Source of the DNA: Eledone cirrhosa
Taxonomy: Eukaryota
Assembly: GCA_964016885.1 (NCBI GenBank)
Contig: OZ024742.1
Location: 90,706,001-90,770,000, forward strand
DNA: 64,000 bases
Direction of reading: 5' to 3'
The notes below the pieces were generated by a model that had not been told where the DNA came from, ran no database searches, and saw only the letters and a program-made list of their open reading frames with translations. Both the position numbers and the translations under genes were made by a program. Below are positions 7,721 through 58,662 of the stretch, piece after piece. Numbering within the stretch: position 1 is the stretch's first letter; every line of letters starts with the position of its first letter.

Positions 7721-9150
7721 CAGGGTGCGGACGATATTTTCGCAAGATTACTGTCTATGAAAAAAGTAACACAGTAGTTTTATTTTTTAAGATATATTTA
7801 TCAAACTTGGGTCAGTTTGTCTTCATGACTTGTTCTTTCGATCTCGCTCGATAAACCCGCCATTGGCCTTGATGGCGGCCTCAAGGTGGCCTCAGAACCG
7901 GCTATAGGCCTTCGTCACTGTTCCCTGACTTAGGCCCCTAAAGGCAATTGTGATCCTGGCCTTCAGATCGTCTTTCGTATTGCAGCTAGATCTGTTGGTG
8001 TCTCGTTCCACTGCGCCCTACACAAAGAAGTCGAAGGGGTTGCAGTCAGGCGAGCTGGGAGGCCAGATGTCAGGTGAAGTGTGGTCGACGAAGTTCTCTG
8101 ACAGCCAGACTTGAGTCTTTCGGCTGGTATGGCAGGGCGCTGAGTCTTGCTGTCACACGTACGGCCTACCTGCAGCTACCTGGTCCATCCAGGGCTTTAC
8201 TACCTCGCTCAGAACGCGGATGTAGCCATCGGTGTTTAGCTTGACGCCCTCAGGGAAGAAGTGAGGTGGCATGACGTCACCTTGACTGCTGCCGACACCT
8301 AAGACCAATGTTGTCGCTGGAAACTTTGTCTGCATGACTCTGGGCACGTCTTTGGATGAGACAGCGAGCCACCTGTTGTTCTGGGAGTTGATCTTCTGGT
8401 CTTGGCAGAAGTTTTTCTCGTCGGAGAAAAACCACAGCATGTCTGGCTCCAGTGGGTGTTTCAACTTGTTGATCAGCTTCTTTGACAGAAATTGTCCTTT
8501 CCTCATCTTGTATGAAACGTAGCGAATGTCTTCATGTACCACCAGCCTAATGAGCTTTTCATTCACGCTTTTCTCCCTTGCAATGGCACGCATCGACTTG
8601 CTAGGTTCATTCTTGATGATATCCTGAACTTCAGCGACGAACTCGGGCGTTCTGAAGGCGTCAGATCGTCGATCATGTGTTTTCCTCTCTGATGTTGCTT
8701 CGTAGTCGAATCCTGAATCTTCCAATTCCTTTCTGACCTTTTCCACCATTCTCCTGCTGACGCTAAGAAAGTCTGACATTTCCTTATTTGTCCTCCCGGC
8801 GCGGATTCCAAGAAGAACTCCGTGTCTCTTCCACAAATTTGGAGATTCAAAATTATTCATAATCAATTATTCTGAAAATAAATAATGGAAATATAGTCCT
8901 TGCCATTCTGAGTTTCAGTATAGTTATGAAGACAAGAGTGACAACGGAAGCAAAATTGAAAGAATTTATCGACGGACGATTTCAAGTGAAAGGGTTCTAC
9001 CAAGAGCATTGAACTTTCCCTCATCATAACGCCGAAATAATGTATCCCGCCTACGTAAATTTTTTTCTACTTTCTATTTACTGATTTACATCAGCACTCG
9101 CTTTTACCGGATTCTCATAAATTTACACAATTTTTCATGTCGACCCTAAT
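7721..9150 (-). mobile_element. Tc1/mariner DD37D (maT-type) transposon relic
   Basis: ORF 8153-8866 with HTH-like N-terminus and WFFSDEKNF. Read through stops it continues *QQDSAPCH...WPPSSPDCNPFDFFV*...GGFIE, with 37 residues between the 2nd and 3rd Asp. TA|CAGGGTG end at 7719-7727; other terminus degenerate and approximate. Confidence 0.85.
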
Positions 9151-23432: not shown

Positions 23433-23454
23433 ATTATTATTACTATTTTTATTA

Positions 23455-24310
23455 GGGTGGTGGATTGGCAGTATCGGTAAATCGTCGAGCACCATGCTGT
23501 GCAGCATAGAGTTACCGTTCTTTACGGGCTGAGTTCAAATTCCGCCAAGGTTAACTTTCCTTTTCATCCTATGGGGTCGACAAAAATAAAGAACCAGTAA
23601 TGTACTGAGGTCGATTTAATCGACTTACGCCCCCGCACCCGCAAATTACTGGCCTTGTGCCTATACTAGAAATGATTATTATTATTATAATTATTATCGT
23701 GGATTGACAGTATCGGTAGAGGGTCGGACGCCATGCTTTGCAGCATAGAGTTACGGCTCTTTATGATCTGAGCTCAAATCCCGCCGAGGTTAACTTTGCC
23801 TTATGGGGTCGATAAAATAAAGCCCCAGTCACGCACTGGAGTCGATTTAATCGACTCTCCCCTCCCCCCAAATTACTGGCTTTGTGCCTATATAAGAAAC
23901 AATTATTATTATTCGGTGAATTGGCTGAGGGCGGTGAATTGGCAGTATCGGTAGAGGGTCGCACGCCATGCTTTGACTCATAGAGTTACGACCCTTGCCA
24001 TTCTGAGTTCAAATCGCACCGAGGTAAACTTTGCCTTTCATCCTTACGGGGTCGATAAAATAAAGTATCAGTAATACACTGGGTAATTGCTGGCCTTGTG
24101 CCAAAAGTAAAAAAATTATTATTAGGGCGGTGGGTTGGCAGTATCTCTAGAGCGTCGGACACCATGCTTTGCGGTATAGAGTTATGGCCCTTTATGTTCA
24201 GAGTTCAAATCCCACCGAGGTTAACTTTGCCTTTTATCATTACGGCGGCGATAAAATAAAGTACCAGTAATGCACTGGAAAAAATTGCTGGCCTTGTGCC
24301 AAAAGTAGAA
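23455..24310 (+). mobile_element. Four head-to-tail SINE family A copies (~23455, 23698, 23929, 24124)
   Basis: Each starts GGYGGTGGATTGGCAGTATCGGTAGAG-like, has a B box and ends in TGTGCC..AGAAA + (ATT)n. Confidence 0.88.
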
Positions 24311-24492
24311 TCAATTATTATATTTTATATAGATATATAAATAATTAAAACAGTGACATAAAGAGGTAGTCAAGTTTCGTTGGGTTCTGGGCCCCAATTC
24401 CTTCAGCCTGTCATGAGAAATATAAAAAAACATACCCATTAGATATATATACTGATATATGTGTATACAAAAGGCAAACATGAATAATAAAG

Positions 24493-37666: not shown

Positions 37667-37700
<34 letters not shown>

Positions 37701-37956
37701 GACATAGAATATTCGAAAATATTCTGTATGTTTATAATAAACATTTTGAAGACCTAATCGCTATAGAATAGAATACGTCACGTATTTTTTCGAATATTCT
37801 ATGTCTATATTCACATATATATCGCTATTTCAGAGCATTTATTCCAATTTCTAATTTCTGCCGGACCGGCAACCGCTCTTTCAAACCAGTTCCTGTACAC
37901 AGCTAAGTATTCTATAAGTCTCTAGCTGTGTCATTCTCGATAAAAGCACTGGATAT

Positions 37957-37999
37957 GTAGTCCTGATGAATTCTAACAAGAATGAAACGCGTAGATTAC
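37957..37999 (+). ncRNA. Minimal type I hammerhead ribozyme, copy 1
   Basis: GTAGTC-CTGATGA-ATTC TAACAA GAAT-GAAA-CGCG-TA-GATTAC; stem I extended by 37933-37948 pairing with 38006-38021. Confidence 0.85.
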
Positions 38000-38266
38000 T
38001 TCCCTTGCTTTTATCGAGAATCTAATTGTAATACGTGACGTATTCTATTCTATAGCGATTAGGTCTTCAAAATGTTTATTATAAACATACAGAATATTTT
38101 CGAATATTCTATGTCTATATTCACATATATATCGCTATTTCAGAGCATTTATTCCAATTTCTAATTTCTGCCGGACCGGCAACCGCTCTTTCAAACCAGT
38201 TCCTGTACACAGCTAAGTATTCTATAAGTCTCTAGCTGTGTCATTCTCGATAAAAGCACTGGATAT

Positions 38267-38309
38267 GTAGTCCTGATGAATTCTAACAAGAATGAAACGC
38301 GTAGATTAC
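38267..38309 (+). ncRNA. Minimal type I hammerhead ribozyme, copy 2
   Basis: Identical to 37957-37999, 310 bp downstream. Confidence 0.85.
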
Positions 38310-38466
38310 TTCCCTTGCTTTTATCGAGAATCTAATTGTAATACGTGACGTATTCTATTCTATAGCGATTAGGTCTTCAAAATGTTTATTATAAACATAC
38401 AGAATATTTTCGAATATTCTATGTCTATATTCACATATATATCGCTATTTCAGAGCATTTATTCCA

Positions 38467-38642
<176 letters not shown>

Positions 38643-40130: not shown

Positions 40131-43100
40131 TGATGGATTTCGCAACTAACTGCACCAGGGTTCCTGTTCCTCAGGGAACCACACTATATGGTATACCTGT
40201 TGATATAGGTCCAGCCCCTGCTTTCCCGGGTCCTGTTTCTGATCATAATGCACCTACAAAGGCATCGAATGATGATGAATCCTCAAATCTCAAGGGACGG
40301 GATTCATCTGATGGAGAAGAAACAGTTCCTAACCAAACAACAAGCAAATCTCGCTTGGCTAGCTGTAAAAAGCGAATAATAGTTATCTCATTGAACACCA
40401 GAACCCTCCTTCCAACAGGTAGACTCCAGGAGCTGGCAGAGAATGCCAAACTTCAGAATATTGACATCCTTGCGGTCCAAGAACACCACCTTTTCCACCC
40501 AAAGGATGATCTCAAGTATCATACACTAGGATCCTACCAACTTGTGACCTCTTCAGCCACCAAAAACCCTGTCAATGCCTCCGTCGGATGAGTCGGCTGC
40601 CTTCTCTCATCTAAAGCCAGCAATAATCTTCTGGGGATTGAAACAATCTCTCCCAGAATCTTGGTGCTTACACTGGAGGGCAATCCTAGAACCACTGCGA
40701 TATGTGTATACAGTCCTCATAACGCCTCTCCTGAGGATGAGGTAAGAGAATTCTACACGACCCTTCGCACAGTTGTTGAGCAAGTACACTTACACAACTT
40801 TCTTATCCTCGCTGGAGACTTCAACGCTCAACTTGGCCCGGAGGAAGTAAAGTTCACATACAATAGGGTTACTAACCGAAACGGGGAATATCCCAAGGAC
40901 TTCATGGAAGAATTCAATCTATTCAGCTCAAATAACAGCTTCATGAAGACCAGAGGCCGGCTTTGGACCTTCGAATACCCAAACCAAAAACGAGCTCAGA
41001 TTGACTATTTGATATTTCGCAAGAAATGGAGAAACTCAATCAAAGATTCTAGATCTTATTCCTCCTTTAGCTCTGTCGGCTCAGATCATCGAGTCATCTC
41101 GGCAACAATCAAACTTAGTCTCAGGATATCCAAGAGGGCCGAACCTCATCCCATGAAAAGTATAGACTGGAAAGCCGTTTCTTCCAACAAACAACTATCC
41201 AATAGCTTCACGCTTCAAGTCTATAACAGATTTCAATCTCTCTCAACTTCTGACATCAATGACGATAATATTGAGGATGTGTATGACTGTCTTAAGCAAT
41301 CAACAGAGGAAGTTGCACTTGCCACCCTACCTAAAAAGAAAAGCTGAAGCCAAATGAAACCTAGTGCCTCAGAGTAGGTAGTTGAGACAAGGGCCCATCT
41401 TAGGTCAATATCTCAATCTCACCATCAATCACCATCTCAAGGGAAAAAGATACAGCTTATCATGGCCAAAAAATCACTAGACGACGCTTATCTTAATGCT
41501 GAAACCGACTATATCTCAGGTAGGATTGATCAGCTATCGCAACATCACATCAGCAAACACCATCATCTTGCTTGGAAGGTTGTCAAAGATCTTTCAGGCA
41601 AACACTCAAACTCTGCAGTTAGAATCAAAGGAGGCTCTGCCAAAAAACGTCTTGAAAATTGGTCTGCTCATTTTAAAAACCTTCTAGGGAAAAAGGCCAG
41701 ACTCTCTGATAACTATCAACTGCCATCCGTTCAGGTTTCAGAGCCTTTAGGAATCAACACCTCTCCTTTCACCATGCCTGAGCTCAAAGAAGCCATCAAA
41801 CAGCTCAAAGCCTCAAAAGCCTTTGGGCCGCATAATATACCTACCCTGATTTGGAAGGATGAGCATTTCCACATCCTTTTGCTCAACTTATGTAACCATA
41901 CTTTCGAGACCAAAAAACCACCTAGCGTCTGGCATGCAGCTCAAATTATCCCCATGCCCAAAAAAGGAGATCTTTCTTTAGCCACCAACTATAGAGGAAT
42001 TTCTCTCATGGAAATTGCTGCAAAAATATACAACAAGCTTGTTCTTAACCGCTTAATCCCATTTCTTGAGCCAATCTTTCGTAACAACCAGAATGGATTT
42101 AGGAGAGGTAGATCAACACTTAGCTAGATTCTCTGCCTTCGCCGACTTCTAGAAGAGTCCCAAAACCGCAATCTAGACCTTGCACTGATCTTTGTTGATT
42201 TTTCAAAAGCCTTCGACTCAGTTGACAGGTCGGGGATGTTTGAAATTCTACAACTCTATGGGATTCCTGATAAAATCATCGCGGCCATACGTGTAATGTA
42301 TACAGATACTAAATCAACTGTCCTGACCCCAGATGAGGAAACACCACCTTTCTCAATCCTCGCTGGAATTTTACAGGGCGATACCCTTGCTCCGTATCTA
42401 TTTATCATTGTTGTGGATTATGTTTTGCGCATGTCTGTGGATAGGATTCAGGATAGGGGATACCAACTACAGCCTAGGAGAAGCTCACGCTACCCAGAAA
42501 AATACTTGACCGACACCGACTTTGCTGACGACATCGCATTGATCAGTTGGTCACTGTAAAATGCTGAGAGTCTTTTGAAGTCATTAGAGCAAGCGTCCAA
42601 CTGTGTTGGACTGTACCTCAACGGATCCAAGACTGAGTATGCGAACAGATGCGCAAACAGCCCAAACTACCCCATCAGAACCCTTAATGGTACCACCCTT
42701 AAGCAGGTGGAAGATTACAAGTATCTTGGCTCATATATCTCCTCCTCCAAAAAAGATTTTCTAACCAGGAAGGGTATGGCATGGTTAGCGTGCAATGATA
42801 TGCACTCCATATGGACATCTCAACTTACCAACAAGCTAAAACTGGAAATATGCCAAGCAACCATTAAGCCCATATTAATTTATGTAACCGAAACTTGGAC
42901 ACAAACATCACAACTTGAGAGGAGATTGGATGGCACATATACCCGCCTCTTAATGAGAGTGCAAAACCTATCCTGGAAACGACATTCCACCTTGTCTAAA
43001 ATCTATGGCAAACTCCCTCGAGCCTCTGCCCTTCTAAAATCCCGGAGAGCTCAATTTGCTGGCCACTGTCACCCTGCCAGCAATGAAATCATATCCGCTC

Positions 43101-43287
43101 TCTTGCTCTGGAACCCTGACTCCAGCCTGACTAGGAGTAGGAAGCTGTCATTCCCTGACGTTATCTCTAGGGATATGGGAATCAGTAGACAGGACCTGGG
43201 GGCAGCGATGGGGGGACAGGGAATTCTGGGGCATGAGAGTGAGATCCGTCATCTCGACAGTAGTCGACGAATGATGATGATGATGAT
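40131..43287 (+). mobile_element. Near full-length RTE-clade LINE (APE endonuclease + RT), nonsense-inactivated
   Basis: [32 protein letters not shown] (APE); NYRGISL, GILQGDTLAPYLF, FADDIAL, YKYLGS (RT). ORF pieces from ATG 40133 all in one frame; (ATG)n tail; possible TSD ATATTGTATATAT at 40118-40130/43286-43298. Confidence 0.93.
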
Positions 43288-43405
43288 ATTGTATATATAT
43301 ATATTATTTATATATATATATATATTATATATATATATATATTATAAATATATATATTATATATATATATATTATAAATATATTATATATATATATATAT
43401 TATAA

Positions 43406-43696: not shown

Positions 43697-43912
43697 AGTA
43701 TTGAAATTTCCGTTGAAAACAGAAAAGGTCATAGAAGTGAAGAGTGCTCTATGTAAGTATCAGAGCAAAATTTAATGTATAAAATTCAATACAATATAAT
43801 TACCGCATTACCAGAGGTTTCCCGAATGAGGCGAATACGAAAGAAACGTCTTCATTCTTTCGTATTCGCCTCATTCGGGAAACCTCTGGTAATGAGGTAA
43901 TTATATTGTATT
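43695..43912 (-). repeat. Fold-back cassette (palindrome 43788-43912) with partial hammerhead
   Basis: ~60 bp arms; minus strand reads TGAAGA...GAAA-CC TCT GG-TA; embedded in (TA)n. Confidence 0.7.
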
Positions 43913-45498: not shown

Positions 45499-45550
45499 AT
45501 ATATATATTATATATATATATATATATTTTATATATCTATATATCTATAT
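43913..45550. repeat. (TA)n/T-rich compound microsatellite
   Basis: Direct inspection. Confidence 0.96.
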
Positions 45551-45735
45551 ATATGGATGTATATATAATGTATTTTGCAATACACTTTATGCTTAATTAA
45601 AAGCATTTTGAAGACCGCATTTTATTGTTTTAGAGTAGTGACAAATTCACTTACTTTAATCTCAGCAAACAGGGGGAGATAAGCCGACAAGGCCTTGTTT
45701 CGCTTTTGTTGAAGCTTATCAAGGCTAACTACACC
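45550..45735 (-). repeat. Partial monomer of the 316-bp array family with U3-A8 hammerhead (45682-45726)
   Basis: Matches ~53612-53797. Minus strand AGCC-TTGATAA-GCTT CAACAA AAGC-GAAA-CAAGGCCTTG-TC-GGCT. Confidence 0.8.
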
Positions 45736-46935
45736 TCCTGAGAGACACATACAACACTTCATCCACCGTATGCAGTTCTCTGGCTACAATCAGAGAGATA
45801 AAATCAGAGTGTATAGAGGAGCCAGAATCAGATGGGAAAAAATGGTAAATAATGATATAAATGGGACCTGCCCCTTTGTATAGGAGCAAATTTTGGAATA
45901 GAATAGAAAGAACTAGGAACAAGGCTAATAGAATAAACTCATCGTATGATAGCAATATGATAACAATAAATACCAGAGTGGAATGTTCATCGATAAAACC
46001 CCTAGAGGTGAATTAGCTTACAAATTTGAAGGGCCCTAGATAAACATAAACTCAATATTAAGATAGTAGAAAGACCAGGTACCTCCGTAAAAACAATTAT
46101 TAGCAAGACATACCCTTTTCAAAGACCCTCATGTATAAATAAGAAACGTATAACCTGTAAAATAAGCCCCCATATTAACTGTAAAACTAGAAATGTAGTG
46201 TATAGCATAAGGTGTACTGAAGGACAATGTAGAGACAAAAATATTGTGTACATAGGTGAGACAGCTCGTAGTGTAGGGGAACGGATAAATGAACACTGGC
46301 GAGACCTTCAAGATACTAAAGAATCATCTGTACTCTACCAACATGCTAAAATAGAACACACGGGTAACTTAGAGAACATAGAAATAAAAATAGAATCTAC
46401 ACACAGAAAAGACGCAATGTTTAGACAAATCACAGAGGCAATAAACATAAAAGAATTACAACCAAAATTAAATAGAAAATATGAGTGGAACAGCAACATC
46501 ACAACTTACAATTAAGGACAAAATGAAAATACACACACACATAGAACAAACAACCAACCAGTAACCTGTAAATAAACAAATAAATAAATGAACATAAACA
46601 CACACAGACACCCGGATGTGGCGCATGCGCAGACTGAGCACACAACACACACACAGAAACAAAATAGCGTAGGACAGAACAAAGGAGAGGCACAAAAACA
46701 AAGAAAGGAATCCCCAGTCACTGAAGTGGTCACATAGTGTGTGACGAAAGAACTATGACAATATATAAACAACTATCTGGTTGTGGAACCAACCAACCAA
46801 ACAGAAATTTATAAATTTATAAATTTATAAATTTATAAATTTATAAATTTATTATAAATTTATTATAATAAATTGAAGTGAAAGCAACTGGTGCGTGTGT
46901 TTCTTATTGGCAACATGACCCTCCCAAAGTATAAC
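45736..46935 (+). mobile_element. Penelope-like element 3' fragment (GIY-YIG endonuclease + terminal region)
   Basis: VVYSIRC..C...VYIGETARSVGERINEH...RQITEAINIK...KLN (46198-46515); degenerate hammerhead at 46717-46759; 46535-46630 has an inverted copy at 39428-39530. Confidence 0.85.
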
Positions 46936-47122
46936 AATATTTATATATATATATATTATATATATATATTATATATATATTATATATATATATATATATT
47001 ATATATGTATATATATATATATTATATGTATATAAATTATATATATATATATATATCACATATATATATATATATATTATATGTATATATATTATATATA
47101 TATATTATATATATATATATAT

Positions 47123-51562: not shown

Positions 51563-51685
51563 GAGCTTGGAGTGTGGAGCGTAGATTATATACCCCGAGG
51601 GACGAGGTTTGGACCATTGATCGGAGACAATGTTGGTGGTAGTGAATATGTCTACGATATCAGAGATCTGAAGAAAACATGGCGG
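51563..51685 (+). CDS. PRDM1: Next exon of PRDM1/Blimp-1-like gene (PR/SET domain)
   Basis: T-rich tract + AG at 51561-51562 and GTGAGT donor at 51686; 123 bp, phase 0/0. [21 protein letters not shown]...KKTWR matches Blimp-1 [21 protein letters not shown]...KYFWR and continues in frame from the 9234-9409 exon. Confidence 0.9.
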
Positions 51686-53541: not shown

Positions 53542-53575
<34 letters not shown>

Positions 53576-53577
<2 letters not shown>

Positions 53578-54717
53578 AAATTAGAATTGGAGCTCTGAAA
53601 TAGCAATATATATATGGATGTATATATAATGTATTTTGCAATACACTTTATGCTTAATTAAAAGCATTTTGAAGACCGTAAGCTATTGTTTTAAAGTAGT
53701 GACAAATTCACTCACTTTGATCTCAGCAAACAGGGGAGATAAGCCGACAAGACTTGTTTCGCTTTGGTTGAAGCTTATCAAGGCCAACTACCCCACCTGT
53801 TTGCTGAGATCATTGATGTTATATTCTTATAGAAATCTAGTAAATAATCAGGAGCTGATTATGCAGAGCGGTTGTTGGTCAGGCAGAAATTAAAAATTAG
53901 AATTGGAGCTCTGAAATAGCAATATATATATGGATGTATATATAATGTATTTTGCAATACACTTTATGCTTAATTAAAAGCATTTTGAAGACCGTAAGCT
54001 ATTGTTTTAAAGTAGTGACAAATTCATTCACTTTGATCTCGGCAAACAGGGGAGATAAGCCGACAAGACTTGTTTCGCTTTGGTTGAAGCTTATCAAGGC
54101 CAACTACCCCACCTGTTTGCTGAGATCATTGATGTTATATTCTTATAGAAATCTAGTAAATAATCAGGAGCTGATTATGCAGAGCGGTTGTTGGTCAGGC
54201 AGAAATTAAAAATTAGAATTGGAGCTCTGAAATAGCAATATATATATGGATGTATATATAATGTATTTTGCAATACACTTTATGCTTAATTAAAAGCATT
54301 TTGATGACCGTAAGCTATTGTTTTAAAGTAGTGACAAATTCACTCATTTTGGTCTCAGCAAACAGGGGAGATAAGCCGACAAGACTTGTTTCGCTTTGGT
54401 TGAAGCTTATCAAGGCCAACTACCCCACCTGTTTGCTGAGATCATTGATGTTATATTCTTATAGAAATCTAGTAAATAATCATGAGCTGATTATGCGGAG
54501 CGGTTGTTGGTCATGCAGAAATTAAAAATTAGAATTGGAGCTCTTAAATAGCAATATATATATGGATGTATATATAATGTATTTTGCAATACACTTTATG
54601 CTTAATTAAAAGCATTTTGAAGACCGTAAGCTATTGTTTTAAAGTAGTGACAAATTCACTCACTTTGATCTCAGCAAATAGGGGAGATAAGCCGACAAGA
54701 CTTGTTTCGCTTTGGTT
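53576..54717 (-). mobile_element. 316-bp tandem array (~3.6 units), hammerhead in each unit; retrozyme-like
   Basis: Units start at 53576, 53892, 54208 and 54524 with few substitutions; flanked by (ATT)n; hammerheads at 53742-53785, 54058-54101 and 54374-54417. Confidence 0.88.
53742..53785 (-). ncRNA. Hammerhead ribozyme, U3-A8 core variant
   Basis: GGCC-TTGATAA-GCTT CAACCA AAGC-GAAA-CAA GTC TTG-TC-GGCT; extended stem GATCTCAGCAAACAGG / CCTGTTTGCTGAGATC. Confidence 0.75.
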
Positions 54718-54734
54718 ATTATTATTATTCTTAT

Positions 54735-54920
54735 GGGCGGTGGATTGGCAGTATCGGTAGAGGGTCGGACACCATGCTTTCCAGCATAGTTACGTCCCTT
54801 TACGATCTGAGTTCAAATCCCGCCGAGGTTGACTTTGCCTTTCATCCTTACGGGGTCGATAAAATAAAGTACCAGTAATGCACTGGGTAATTACTGGCCT
54901 TGTGCCTAAAGTAGAAACAA
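54735..54920 (+). mobile_element. SINE family A
   Basis: Complete copy with A/B boxes and (ATT)n tail. Confidence 0.9.
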
Positions 54921-54937
54921 TTATTATTATTATTATT

Positions 54938-57900
54938 GTTCTTTGAGTCTCAGTCATTGATGTTAGTTAACTGGAAAGTTCGTGAAATGAATATCAAGCC
55001 ACTACCTGCAGCCTCAGATATTCAGGACGTATCGGAGGGTTCTTGCTGTTCCCAGCATGCATGCCTTTTGAAGTGTTCCGAAAAGCGGGGCGGGGCTAAT
55101 TTTCTTTAACCATCCTTGGAAACTCTTTGAGATAGTACCTAGTGCGCCTATGACAATCGGGACCACTTTGACTTCATGGCATTTCCAAATCCTTTTTACC
55201 TCCCACTTTAAGTCCTGGTATCGGTTAATTTTCTCCCTCTCCTTCTCTTGCACTCTTGTGTCGAATGGGCAGGCTACATCCACAATCAGGCACAATCTTT
55301 TTTCCTTGTCCAAAACCACGAGGTCAGGTCTATTGTGTTCCAGTTTCTTGTCCGTCTGTATCCTAAAACCCACAGCACCTTCACCTGATCGTTTTCTATC
55401 ACCGACTCTGGCTTATGCTCATACCACTTCTCAGAATGTGGTAAATTGTTTACTTTGCATAGGTGCCTGTGGATCACCCTGCCCATCACATCATGTCTCC
55501 AGCCTTTATTGTGAGTCTGGGCTAGGTGTTTACACTCGGATACAATGTGAGCCACAGTCTCCTCTCTCTCTCCACAGATCCTACACAGTGGGCTAGCCTC
55601 CTCCTTGTAAATATGGTGTTTCAGCCACTTCGTTTTGAGGGCCTGCTCTTGCGCAGCCATTAGGATTCCTTCTGTAGCCTTTTTAAGGTCTCCTCTTTTC
55701 AGCAGTTCCATGTCTGTGGATCTCTGAATTCAGTTTTCTCAAAGAAGGTACTATGAAGGGATTTTTCATGAAGGGTGCTCTTTCGTCGTGTTGTTATTTC
55801 CTCCTTGGACATCCCCAGGTCTATTGTCCTCTCCTTCAGTACAATTCTGAGCATTGGCTCCTTACTATCAGTCACGTATTTGTGTAGGTTGTTTTTCTCC
55901 ATCTGAACACAGTCCTCTATGCTGATAAGACCTCTTCCACCCTCAGATCTCCTTAAGTAGAGTCTATCGACATCACTCCTCTTGTGGAACATATTGTAGA
56001 TAGTCAATAGCTTCCTAGTCTTCCTATCCATTTCCTTTTGTTCAGCAACATTCCATCTCAGAATTCCCGCACTGTACCTAATAATAAACACAGCTCGGGA
56101 ATTTACTGCACTTATGGCATTCCAACTTGTTCAGATGTGATTTTAATACGCTCCTTCCTCTCCGAATGTATTTAGATCTTATCAATTCCTTCATTTTTTG
56201 CTTCTTGGTGTCATCAGCCTTCAGAACACCTCAATATTTGTATCCTTCTTCAGTGTCAATTTCCTTTATCATCTCACCTGTTGGTACCTGGATTCCGTTG
56301 CTTCTGCTCAATTTACCCCTCTTCATCAAAAGGACTCCACAATTACTAATACCCAATTGCATACATATATCATTGCTGAAAATACGAACAGTGTCAACAA
56401 GCACATCCAACTCCTTCTCACACTTCCCGTAGAGCTTAAGATCGTCCATGAAGAGGGGGTGATTGATGGTAAGCTCTCCCTTTCCCAACTTGTATCCTGC
56501 TCTCACTTTTCGCAGTATAATGGTCAGGGGCATCAAGGCAAGGACAAACAACAGAGGGGACAGACTATCTCCCTGGAAGATACCTCTCTTGATCTTCACG
56601 CTTCCCAAGGATTCTCCAGCCGATGTTAACTCTGTTTTCCAGGACTTCATACTTTTGCTCAACAACTGTCTGATGTTATCTGCCACCCTGAAGATCTCTA
56701 GGCTTTTGGTGATCCAAGAATGAGGCACCATGTCAAATGCCTTTCTGTAGTCTATCCATTCCATGGCAAGACCACTGTGTCTCCTCTTGCAATTCCTCAT
56801 TACCATCTTATCAATAAGTAACTGGTCCTTTGTACCACGGGACTTCTTTCGGCATCCTTTCTGTTCGTCCGGTAACAAGTTATTTGTGTGGAGGTGATGG
56901 TAAATTTCCTCAGACACAATGCTTATTAACAGTTTCCACATTACGGATAGACATGTGATAGGTCTATAGTTGGTAACATCATTACCCTTGATTCGGTCTT
57001 TCATTACCAGAACTGTGGTACCTTTTGTCAACCACTCTGGTACCTCACCTGACATCAAGCAGTCATTGAACATGGTTGTCAGTTTCGGGTGGAGGGATGT
57101 TATATTTTTAATCCAATACCCCTGCACACCATCTGGGCCTGGTGATTTCCAGTTGGTTAGTTTTTTGGCCTGCCCCTTAAGAGTTTCAACTGTGATACTC
57201 AAATCAGTTTGTTGGTGTGCCTGTTTACTAATCTACTTTTGTACTGTCTCAATCCACACTGCCTGGTCATTATGTTTAACATCCTACTCCCATATTCCTC
57301 TCCAGGATGTCTTAGTTCGTTCCGCCTCAGGGATCAAGTCGGTGCCTCTTTCTTTCCCTTCAAGCTGTCCAAACAACATCTGGTTGTTGTCAAACATGCG
57401 GTTCTGTCTATACTGACTGACTCTGCTATCGTATCGCCTAATCTTTGCGCTCTTTTCTACAATGCGTTGCTTCAGTTCCTCTATGATAATATTTAGCTTT
57501 TTCCTCCTAGTTTTGTACTTTATTTCCAGTCTATTTTTAGTGTCTATGTTTTGTAGTGTTCCATTCAGTAGGGACTCAAGCTTTCCAATGTCATTTCTCA
57601 TTTCCCTGATTTGACCATTCAGTCGTTTCTCCCACCAAGGTTCTGATCTTTCTTGTTTGTTGTTTCCTCTCGCTTTTATGCCAAGTAATTTCCTCACTGC
57701 ATTTGCTGTTGCTTTGAGGATACTGTTGCACTGGTGAAGGTTCCTCGCCTCAAGGTATGGAATGACTTTGTTTACCTTAGCTTGTTGTTTCTTTTAACTT
57801 TATCCTGTCTACAAATCTTAGGTTCATAGGTTTTCCACTATCATTGTTTATTTCATCTACCACTAAGTTTAGGATATCAACCAAATCTTGTAATAGCCCG

Positions 57901-58172
57901 TCAGCATTAATTTCCTCAATGGCCGTATCTTTGTTCCAGCTATTATTTATTTCAGCATTCAGATCATTGTCTGCTTCGAATGCTTTCTCCGTTCTCTCAA
58001 CCTCTTCTCCACCTTCATCTCCCACTGGCTCGTTTTCCTGGCATACTCCACTCTCCATTTCCAATCTAATCTCTCTGCCGAGTTCCTCCAGTTCCAGCTC
58101 GCTTATCCACCCATTAGTTCTTATTACCCGAGCCTGCCCGGCCAATTTTTGTTCATCTAATTTAAATAGACC
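54938..58172 (-). mobile_element. R4/Dong-like non-LTR retrotransposon (RT + CCHC + REL endonuclease), 5'-truncated and frameshifted
   Basis: NWKSPGPDGVQGYWIK, NYRPITCL, GIFQGDSLSPLLF, LFMDDLKLY, CRICGEREETVAHIVSEC, HNRPDLVV..DVACPFD..KYQDL-like; both ends abut (TAA)n. Confidence 0.92.
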
Positions 58173-58173
58173 A

Positions 58174-58235
<62 letters not shown>

Positions 58236-58236
<1 letters not shown>

Positions 58237-58662
58237 GTTGCATTTATCTTGCTTTATGTTCATACGAGTTATCACCAAGTCACAACCAGTGACCTCAAGA
58301 GACAACAATGTCCGCCATGTTCAAGAAAGAACATACATACACACACATGAATCTTTAGGTGTTTAGACTTGTGATGTACTTATATTGACATAATCTTCCT
58401 TAGTATATGGGCAGTTCCCATTAGTACTATCTTTTGTATTTCTCCTATACGCGGATTTCCTGGGATTTGCGATAAGTAATCATTAGACCCCTTAGGTAAT
58501 ATTCCTAGAGCGCCTACAACCACTGGTATTGTTTTAGTTCTCAATTTCCACATTTTTCCAATTTCTATCTCCAGGTCCTTATACTTGCTCAATTTTTCAA
58601 ATGTTTTTATAGATACATTCTTGTCTATTGGAACGGACATATCAATTAGTAGGCATACCCTC

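Follow-up and report, generated by a model that had tools for sequence, protein, structure and literature searches.

The window analysed here comprises 64,000 nt of Eledone cirrhosa DNA (contig OZ024742.1), and coordinates without further indication refer to it. Its minus strand carries a tandem array with a period of 316 bp, 3.6 copies and 98% matches, in which three complete units each hold a type I hammerhead, and a fourth hammerhead is cut off by the end of the insertion (Table 1). The array units are ~1% apart and differ from their own majority sequence at 5, 3, 2 and 0 bases. The array has a GC content of 34%, no open reading frame (ORF) of ≥ 110 aa and no LTR, PBS or PPT, the latter two being judged by eye. 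The 5' end of the insertion is truncated inside loop II, its 3' end lies 173 nt past the cleavage site, and the (TAA)n on both flanks would mask any target-site duplication. The array likely sits in an intron of a PRDM1-like gene; because it is antisense to the PRDM1-like exon, it would, if intronic, not cut that pre-mRNA. Elsewhere in the window lie a 5'-truncated solo copy of an older subfamily, a sister retrozyme with a canonical C3-G8 core and a copy of a Penelope-like element (PLE), here named PLE-A. The SINE-like repeat beside the array (54740-54920) also occurs at 23433-24321, likewise within (ATT)n tracts, and is tandem at 23.4-24.3 kb.

Table 1. Features of the array, its relatives and their surroundings in the window
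Feature	Position	Strand	Remarks
Sister retrozyme, canonical C3-G8	37681..38473	+	~310-bp unit, 74-78% over body; C3 at 37963 and 38273
Solo copy, 5'-truncated, older subfamily (~92%)	45546..45740	-	3' end runs into (TA)n
PLE-A copy, 5'-truncated	45740..46938	+	head to head with solo copy at 45740; 3' end into (TA)n
PR/SET-domain exon, best match PRDM1	51563..51685	+	array 1.9 kb downstream, opposite strand
(TAA)n tract, array 3' end	53544..53576	.	likely target; short microhomology to element end
Retrozyme tandem array, one insertion	53573..54717	-	3.6 x 316 bp
Type I hammerhead 3	53738..53789	-	U3 53781, A8 53776; predicted cut 53746^53745
Type I hammerhead 2	54054..54105	-	U3 54097, A8 54092; predicted cut 54062^54061
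Long outer helix prolonging stem I (~16 bp)	54350..54445	-	region folds at z = -6 versus shuffles
Type I hammerhead 1	54370..54421	-	U3 54413, A8 54408; predicted cut 54378^54377
Fourth hammerhead, 3' half only	54686..54717	-	truncated 5' end of insertion; without 3-9 core
(TAA)n tract, array 5' end	54718..54731	.	adjoins SINE-like repeat

The core of the three complete units reads UUGAUAA-GCUU-CAACCA-AAGC-GAAA-CAAGUCUUGUC. It thereby comprises all parts of a hammerhead (U3 U4 G5 A6 U7 A8 A9, a GCUU/AAGC stem II with a 6-nt loop, GAAA and a GUC site), and the type I three-way junction is present with U4 G5 A6 N7 A9, G12 A13 A14, A15.1-U16.1 and H17. An earlier note on this DNA had described the 316-bp array with UUGAUAA in its three complete units and a separate copy with the same core at 45682-45726. 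Both were found as described, the array on the minus strand and the solo copy with U3 at 45722, A8 at 45717 and C17 at 45686. A descriptor combining U3-A8 with stem II matched four times in the window, compared to a mean of 0.06 and a maximum of 1 in 100 block shuffles. The Rfam HH9 model, which has a C3-G8 core and a longer stem I than the array, matches all three full cores with 24 bits (E 0.002-0.003), below its gathering cut-off of 52 bits. When the whole window was scanned with Rfam, no hammerhead was found among the 150 listed of 176 matches, nearly all of which were microsatellite-driven matches to miRNA families. In contigs from four sequencing runs, no variant at position 3 or 8 reached 5%. 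These contigs were not counted as evidence: they carry no information on strand, ends or circularity, unit-length self-closing contigs are also expected from tandem DNA, and the low-depth runs labelled as other organisms may reflect contamination.

The stem III of the array is not an ordinary hairpin but a palindrome (ACAAG-U-CUUGU), and that of the solo copy is a perfect 12-nt palindrome, ACAAGGCCUUGU. In the array, stem III pairs more stably when two copies form it together (-10.1 kcal/mol) than when it forms inside a single copy. Across subfamilies the stem remains palindromic with compensating changes, and its self-duplex energies range from -6 to -20 kcal/mol. Since stem III is palindromic, the array hammerheads are predicted to cleave as dimers, which we consider likely. 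The earlier note had assigned stems I-III; the type I hammerhead stands, and the palindromic, dimer-type nature of stem III had been missed, as had the partner PLE and the window's C3-G8 sister family.

The monomer is predicted to adopt a fold that is not the active one and in which U3-U4-G5 pair with the 5' arm of the stem III palindrome. Imposing the active fold gave -38.4 versus -44.6 for the predicted fold, a gap that is overstated as some stem I pairs were omitted. The alternative helix (pairs 5-15.2, 4-15.3 and 3-15.4) has a probability of ≥ 0.8 in 10 of 18 representatives and of ≥ 0.5 in 13, and is absent or weak in five, among which is a second U3-A8 group described below.

Copy number and the linkage of positions 3 and 8 were assessed by pattern counts over the 3.0-Gb genome. 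The exact 27-nt core of the array family occurs 676 times; the same context with C3-G8 does not occur, another base at position 3 occurs three times and another base at position 8 once. A looser frame was defined by G10.1-C11.1 and a 14-nt stem-loop II and misses cores with other stem II frames. It returned 12,564 C3-G8 matches (16 with the reversed-pattern control) and, for the U3-A8 motif that the earlier note had proposed to search genome-wide, 4,899 matches (control 270). Unlinked variation was rare, with 147 C3-A8 (control 47) and 125 U3-G8 matches (control 117), so that mismatched states make up ~1.5% of the raw matches. As these matches share ancestry, the counts demonstrate linkage and do not represent independent events. 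The earlier note had anticipated that CTGANGA-type searches would overlook this family: with controls subtracted they miss ~27% of the G10.1-C11.1 cores, and CUGANGA-only surveys would therefore pass over about a quarter of such hammerhead cores in this genome.

A search with a body motif, chosen to avoid selecting on the core, gave 5,512 matches, from which 40 further sites were fetched. Among 192 anchored fragments, 109 distinct ones span the whole hammerhead (U-A in 89, C-G in 14 and other states in six); this set derives partly from core-pattern loci, and its U-A/C-G ratio is not a genome estimate. Most of the loci sampled come from the beginning of contig C1. In 54 non-redundant units, variants common to at least three rows occur in none of nine core columns, all eight stem II columns and 40 of 129 body columns. 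The stem II columns are still paired in 45-50 of 53 rows despite this variation, and positions 3 and 8 are paired in 49 of 53 (48 Watson-Crick, one U.G). The pair 10.1-11.1, which is usually conserved, is plastic in this lineage, being C.A or U.U in whole subfamilies (L153-L182; L038, L115, L121). One propagated subfamily (L084, L125, L128, L129) carries an additional A just after stem II, ahead of G12.

A tree was built from homologous units with positions 3 and 8 masked. It forms a ladder. The array family occupies a young tip within a U3-A8 clade (support 100/99) that is itself nested within C3-G8 subfamilies, and two well-supported branches separate this clade from the second U3-A8 group. 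All 33 aligned copies of the second group, which was retrieved with a U-A query, are U-A. A single origin of U3-A8 on the masked tree was tried and is ruled out, as a single U3-A8 clade is rejected with p-AU values of 2.4e-5 (49 rows) and 1.1e-4 (56 rows); six mismatched or gapped rows were left out of these tests, and the grouping was tested after the first tree had been seen. The tree thus indicates that the lineage has swapped between C3-G8 and U3-A8, as pairs, at least twice. Rooted on the C3-G8 sister family of the window, which has an ACGCGU palindrome, A10.1-U11.1 and a GUA site, it allows either two U-A gains or a gain, a reversal and a second gain. Template switching could distort the masked tree. 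The four U3-A8 copies in the window alone represent one inherited event and are not independent evidence.

The switch to U3-A8 probably passed through a short-lived U3.G8 intermediate. U3.G8 is found in both units of one tandem pair (L129), and another such pair is present among the U3-G8 matches of the genome; both fit a wobble intermediate between C3-G8 and U3-A8 without proving one. Family B (L055, L057, L058) has U3-A8 cores with a ACAAUUGU palindrome and showed no body homology to the array lineage by blastn or profile, and is a possible third origin of U3-A8. Other canonical C3-G8 type I families (L031-L042) include arrays of ~466-469 bp with at least 30 units and compensated stem II variants.

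The pair C3-G8 belongs to the active hammerhead fold (PMC3884650). The earlier note had proposed covariation of positions 3 and 8, and this is borne out: because mismatches are few, at least two switches are placed on the tree and the other core bases are invariant while stem II varies with compensation, selection on the 3-8 pair is the best reading. U3-A8 would then likely be a near-isosteric replacement that is tolerated and that selection for cleavage has maintained.

The novelty that the earlier note implied for U3-A8 does not hold, since natural U3-A8 cores were published in 2011 as a covariation with 'several examples', described there as previously found active in vitro (Perreault 2011, PMC3088659), and in 2014 with ~1,300 descriptor matches in Schistosoma in a PLE context (Cervera and de la Pena 2014, PMC4209133). 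The swap reported in 2011 is the same; here it is found in thousands of copies with a phylogeny. The Cercyon PLE hammerheads of Schistosoma share with the present family the covariation, the PLE context and being missed by the standard descriptor. As described in that paper, they are minimal and mostly solo hammerheads with a helix II of 7-8 bp and no helix III, whereas the array family has a 4-bp stem II, a 6-nt loop, a palindromic stem III and a non-coding tandem unit. A closer likeness exists to the metazoan non-LTR retrozymes (Cervera and de la Pena 2020, PMC7229834), which have type I hammerheads in tandem units of 150-450 bp, a GC content below 50%, no ORF, thousands of copies, a short palindromic helix III and coexisting PLEs. 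In contrast to these, as described in that report, the present lineage has a U3-A8 core, traceable pair switching and physical PLE chimeras. Cleavage and circular RNA have been demonstrated for metazoan retrozymes, with circles in coral, mussel and axolotl (PMC7229834), and are predicted for the array. A search of the open-access literature, mostly of titles and abstracts, returned no report of repeated pair switching in one lineage or of PLE-retrozyme chimeras, and the supplements of the 2014 and 2020 papers and of the preprint discussed below could show U3-A8 retrozymes. What is new is hence not the U3-A8 core, which is real and already known, but the repeated C3-G8/U3-A8 switching in one lineage. 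The interest lies in this natural, tree-ordered succession of changes that compensate one another within the active site of a ribozyme, for which the two states and their neighbours are at hand, together with a physical link to a candidate mobilising enzyme.

This link comes from the insertions themselves. Retrozyme copies display a PLE-like anatomy with 5' truncation, inversions, fixed internal 3' ends and a microsatellite target. Inverted pieces are found at 13 of 22 distinct sites among the first 30 loci, and of 28 distinct 3' ends, 26 map to unit position 164 or 190-197, located 140-173 nt downstream of the cut, where they continue into (TA)n or (TAA)n. As the insertion anatomy of the array lineage is the one described for Penelope-like elements (PMC8557442), we infer PLE mobilisation. 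Full-length PLE-A copies in turn end in (TA)n, 129-183 nt past the cut of their own hammerhead, which is minimal and C3-G8. The PLE-A copy in the window has an RT-thumb remnant and a GIY-YIG frame at 46030-46515 (E 2e-4, just under the Pfam cut-off). Its minimal hammerhead (46713-46761, plus strand, C3 at 46721) reads CTGAAGT versus CTGAAGA in other copies and is likely decayed. The idea that the solo copy is a terminal repeat of this adjoining PLE was considered and is ruled out, as the PLE has its own, unrelated minimal hammerhead.

Genome-wide, PLE-A has 40,423 candidate places, and 139 scored copies, the query's own excepted, are 97-99% identical at the aa level; PLE-A is evidently young. 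One copy has an open frame of 1,167 codons without a Pfam match, in which an RT, a Neptune-like CX4CxxC linker and, at the C terminus, a GIY-YIG were read as motifs, and PLE-A is thus an apparently intact candidate enzyme for retrozyme mobilisation. It resembles Neptune/Nematis-type PLEs (PMC8557442) in its RT, CX2-5CxxC linker, C-terminal GIY-YIG and hammerhead in the 3' repeat as well as in its inverted, 5'-truncated copies and microsatellite targets, a likeness based on motifs and not on a tree.

PLE-A or a relative lies within 25 bp at 6 of 120 distinct sites of the retrozyme lineage (~0.16 expected) and within 100 bp at seven (~0.65 expected), the sites being counted by coordinates from 148 records. 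The expectation is rough, since PLE fragments made up of UTR alone do not enter the density and (TA)n is a favoured target of both elements. At four junctions the partners lie head to head (in the window, L017, L053 and L141) and at three they have the same orientation (L020, L060 and L152), with no target tract between the retrozyme and its PLE partner. None of 19 PLE-selected loci contained a retrozyme unit, an outcome to be expected should few PLE copies be chimeric. The retrozyme body profile had no significant match in PLE-A of two long copies, terminal repeat included. Fragments of a second PLE family are present near retrozyme copies at L023, L040, L051, L059 and L060 without direct junctions.

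Mobilisation of retrozymes, as non-autonomous derivatives, by PLEs has been proposed from co-occurrence and pLTR homology in Xenopus (bioRxiv 10.64898/2026.07.22.740005); the present case differs in that it is built on how the insertions are structured and on the junctions, and the partner shows no pLTR homology. For animal retrozymes, mobilisation by Penelope-like elements has so far been argued indirectly, and the present case adds physical evidence. A PLE protein, when purified, was found to nick the two DNA strands at sites rich in AT and to initiate at an internal position of its RNA (PMC11167929).

Taken together, we consider it highly probable that the array was inserted recently and belongs to a non-LTR retrozyme of high copy number. 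The U3-A8 hammerheads of this retrozyme likely undergo self-cleavage as dimers, and a Penelope-like RT likely copied it into (TA)n/(TAA)n. By analogy with the systems cited above, a minus-strand multimer would be transcribed, after which two hammerheads would join by their palindromic stem III and cut after GUC to release 316-nt monomers that may be ligated into circles. The PLE-A protein would then nick AT-rich DNA and start cDNA synthesis 140-173 nt downstream of the cut, and rolling-circle reverse transcription would yield n.x units. Priming on both strands would produce inverted pieces, and the use of PLE RNA as a second template would produce chimeras.

Part of this scheme would be superfluous if the hammerhead were a conserved fold or protein-binding site on a PLE-mobilised repeat for which cleavage is dispensable. 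The Anolis PLE inserts in vitro without a need for hammerhead cleavage and gave no reads ending at the cut (PMC11167929), only one of nine Xenopus retrozyme dimers was cleaved in vitro (bioRxiv 10.64898/2026.07.22.740005), and the monomer fold predicted here is inactive, all of which agrees with such a role. Yet lineages that are 20-25% apart show little or no variation in the catalytic bases G5, G12, A13 and A14 or in the NUH site, and positions 3 and 8, a pair of the active fold (PMC3884650), are paired again after each switch, which makes dispensable cleavage improbable. Less probable still is a satellite that spread as DNA through unequal crossing over, with U3-A8 as two hitchhiking mutations fixed once. 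Some arrays are indeed long, and C>T and G>A changes are common in an AT-rich genome. Against this explanation stand short insertions that number in the thousands and are scattered, with 3' ends at fixed positions, truncated 5' ends and inverted pieces, together with no fewer than two paired switches and compensated stems; these have largely refuted it already.

The identity of the enzyme leaves more room for doubt. The retrozyme may have been mobilised by another RT, either of another PLE family or of a LINE, with the PLE-A junctions resulting from a shared (TA)n target. Other PLE families near three loci without a junction are compatible with this, as are junction partners that range from 58% to 96% identity to PLE-A and a second sister-retrozyme copy (locus L183) that is located within a (TA)n tract, 160 bp away from a PLE-A end. 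The head-to-head junctions speak against it, as no microsatellite separates the partners and the 3' end of each points away from the junction into the target. On balance we regard another RT as unlikely, though clearly less so than the two explanations above, and PLE-A as the likely mobiliser of the array's retrozyme.

The predicted folds add a further layer to this reading. Position 3 is able to pair with 15.4 in 17 of 18 representatives, as C-G, U.G and U-A along the ladder, and the 3-15.4 pairing may hypothetically belong to an 'off' helix of the monomer. A joint reading, which is rather speculative and in our estimate unlikely as a whole, would give position 3 two partners, position 8 when the dimer is active and 15.4 in the predicted monomer 'off' helix. 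The C3-G8/U3-A8 flips would then have occurred repeatedly via a viable U3.G8 with the stem III palindrome co-adjusted, and each chimera would record one event in which the same Penelope-like RT complex copied both its own RNA and a retrozyme circle, thereby naming the spreading enzyme.

The window holds further repeats besides these elements. Two broken non-LTR retrotransposons with RT frames are located at 55014-58253 (minus strand, with an RVT_1 match) and 40592-43405 (plus strand). A frame at 8153-8866 (minus strand) resembles a Tc1/mariner transposase fragment, judged by eye and with a weak HTH match, and an 87-bp near-perfect inverted repeat lies within (TA)n at 43807-43893.
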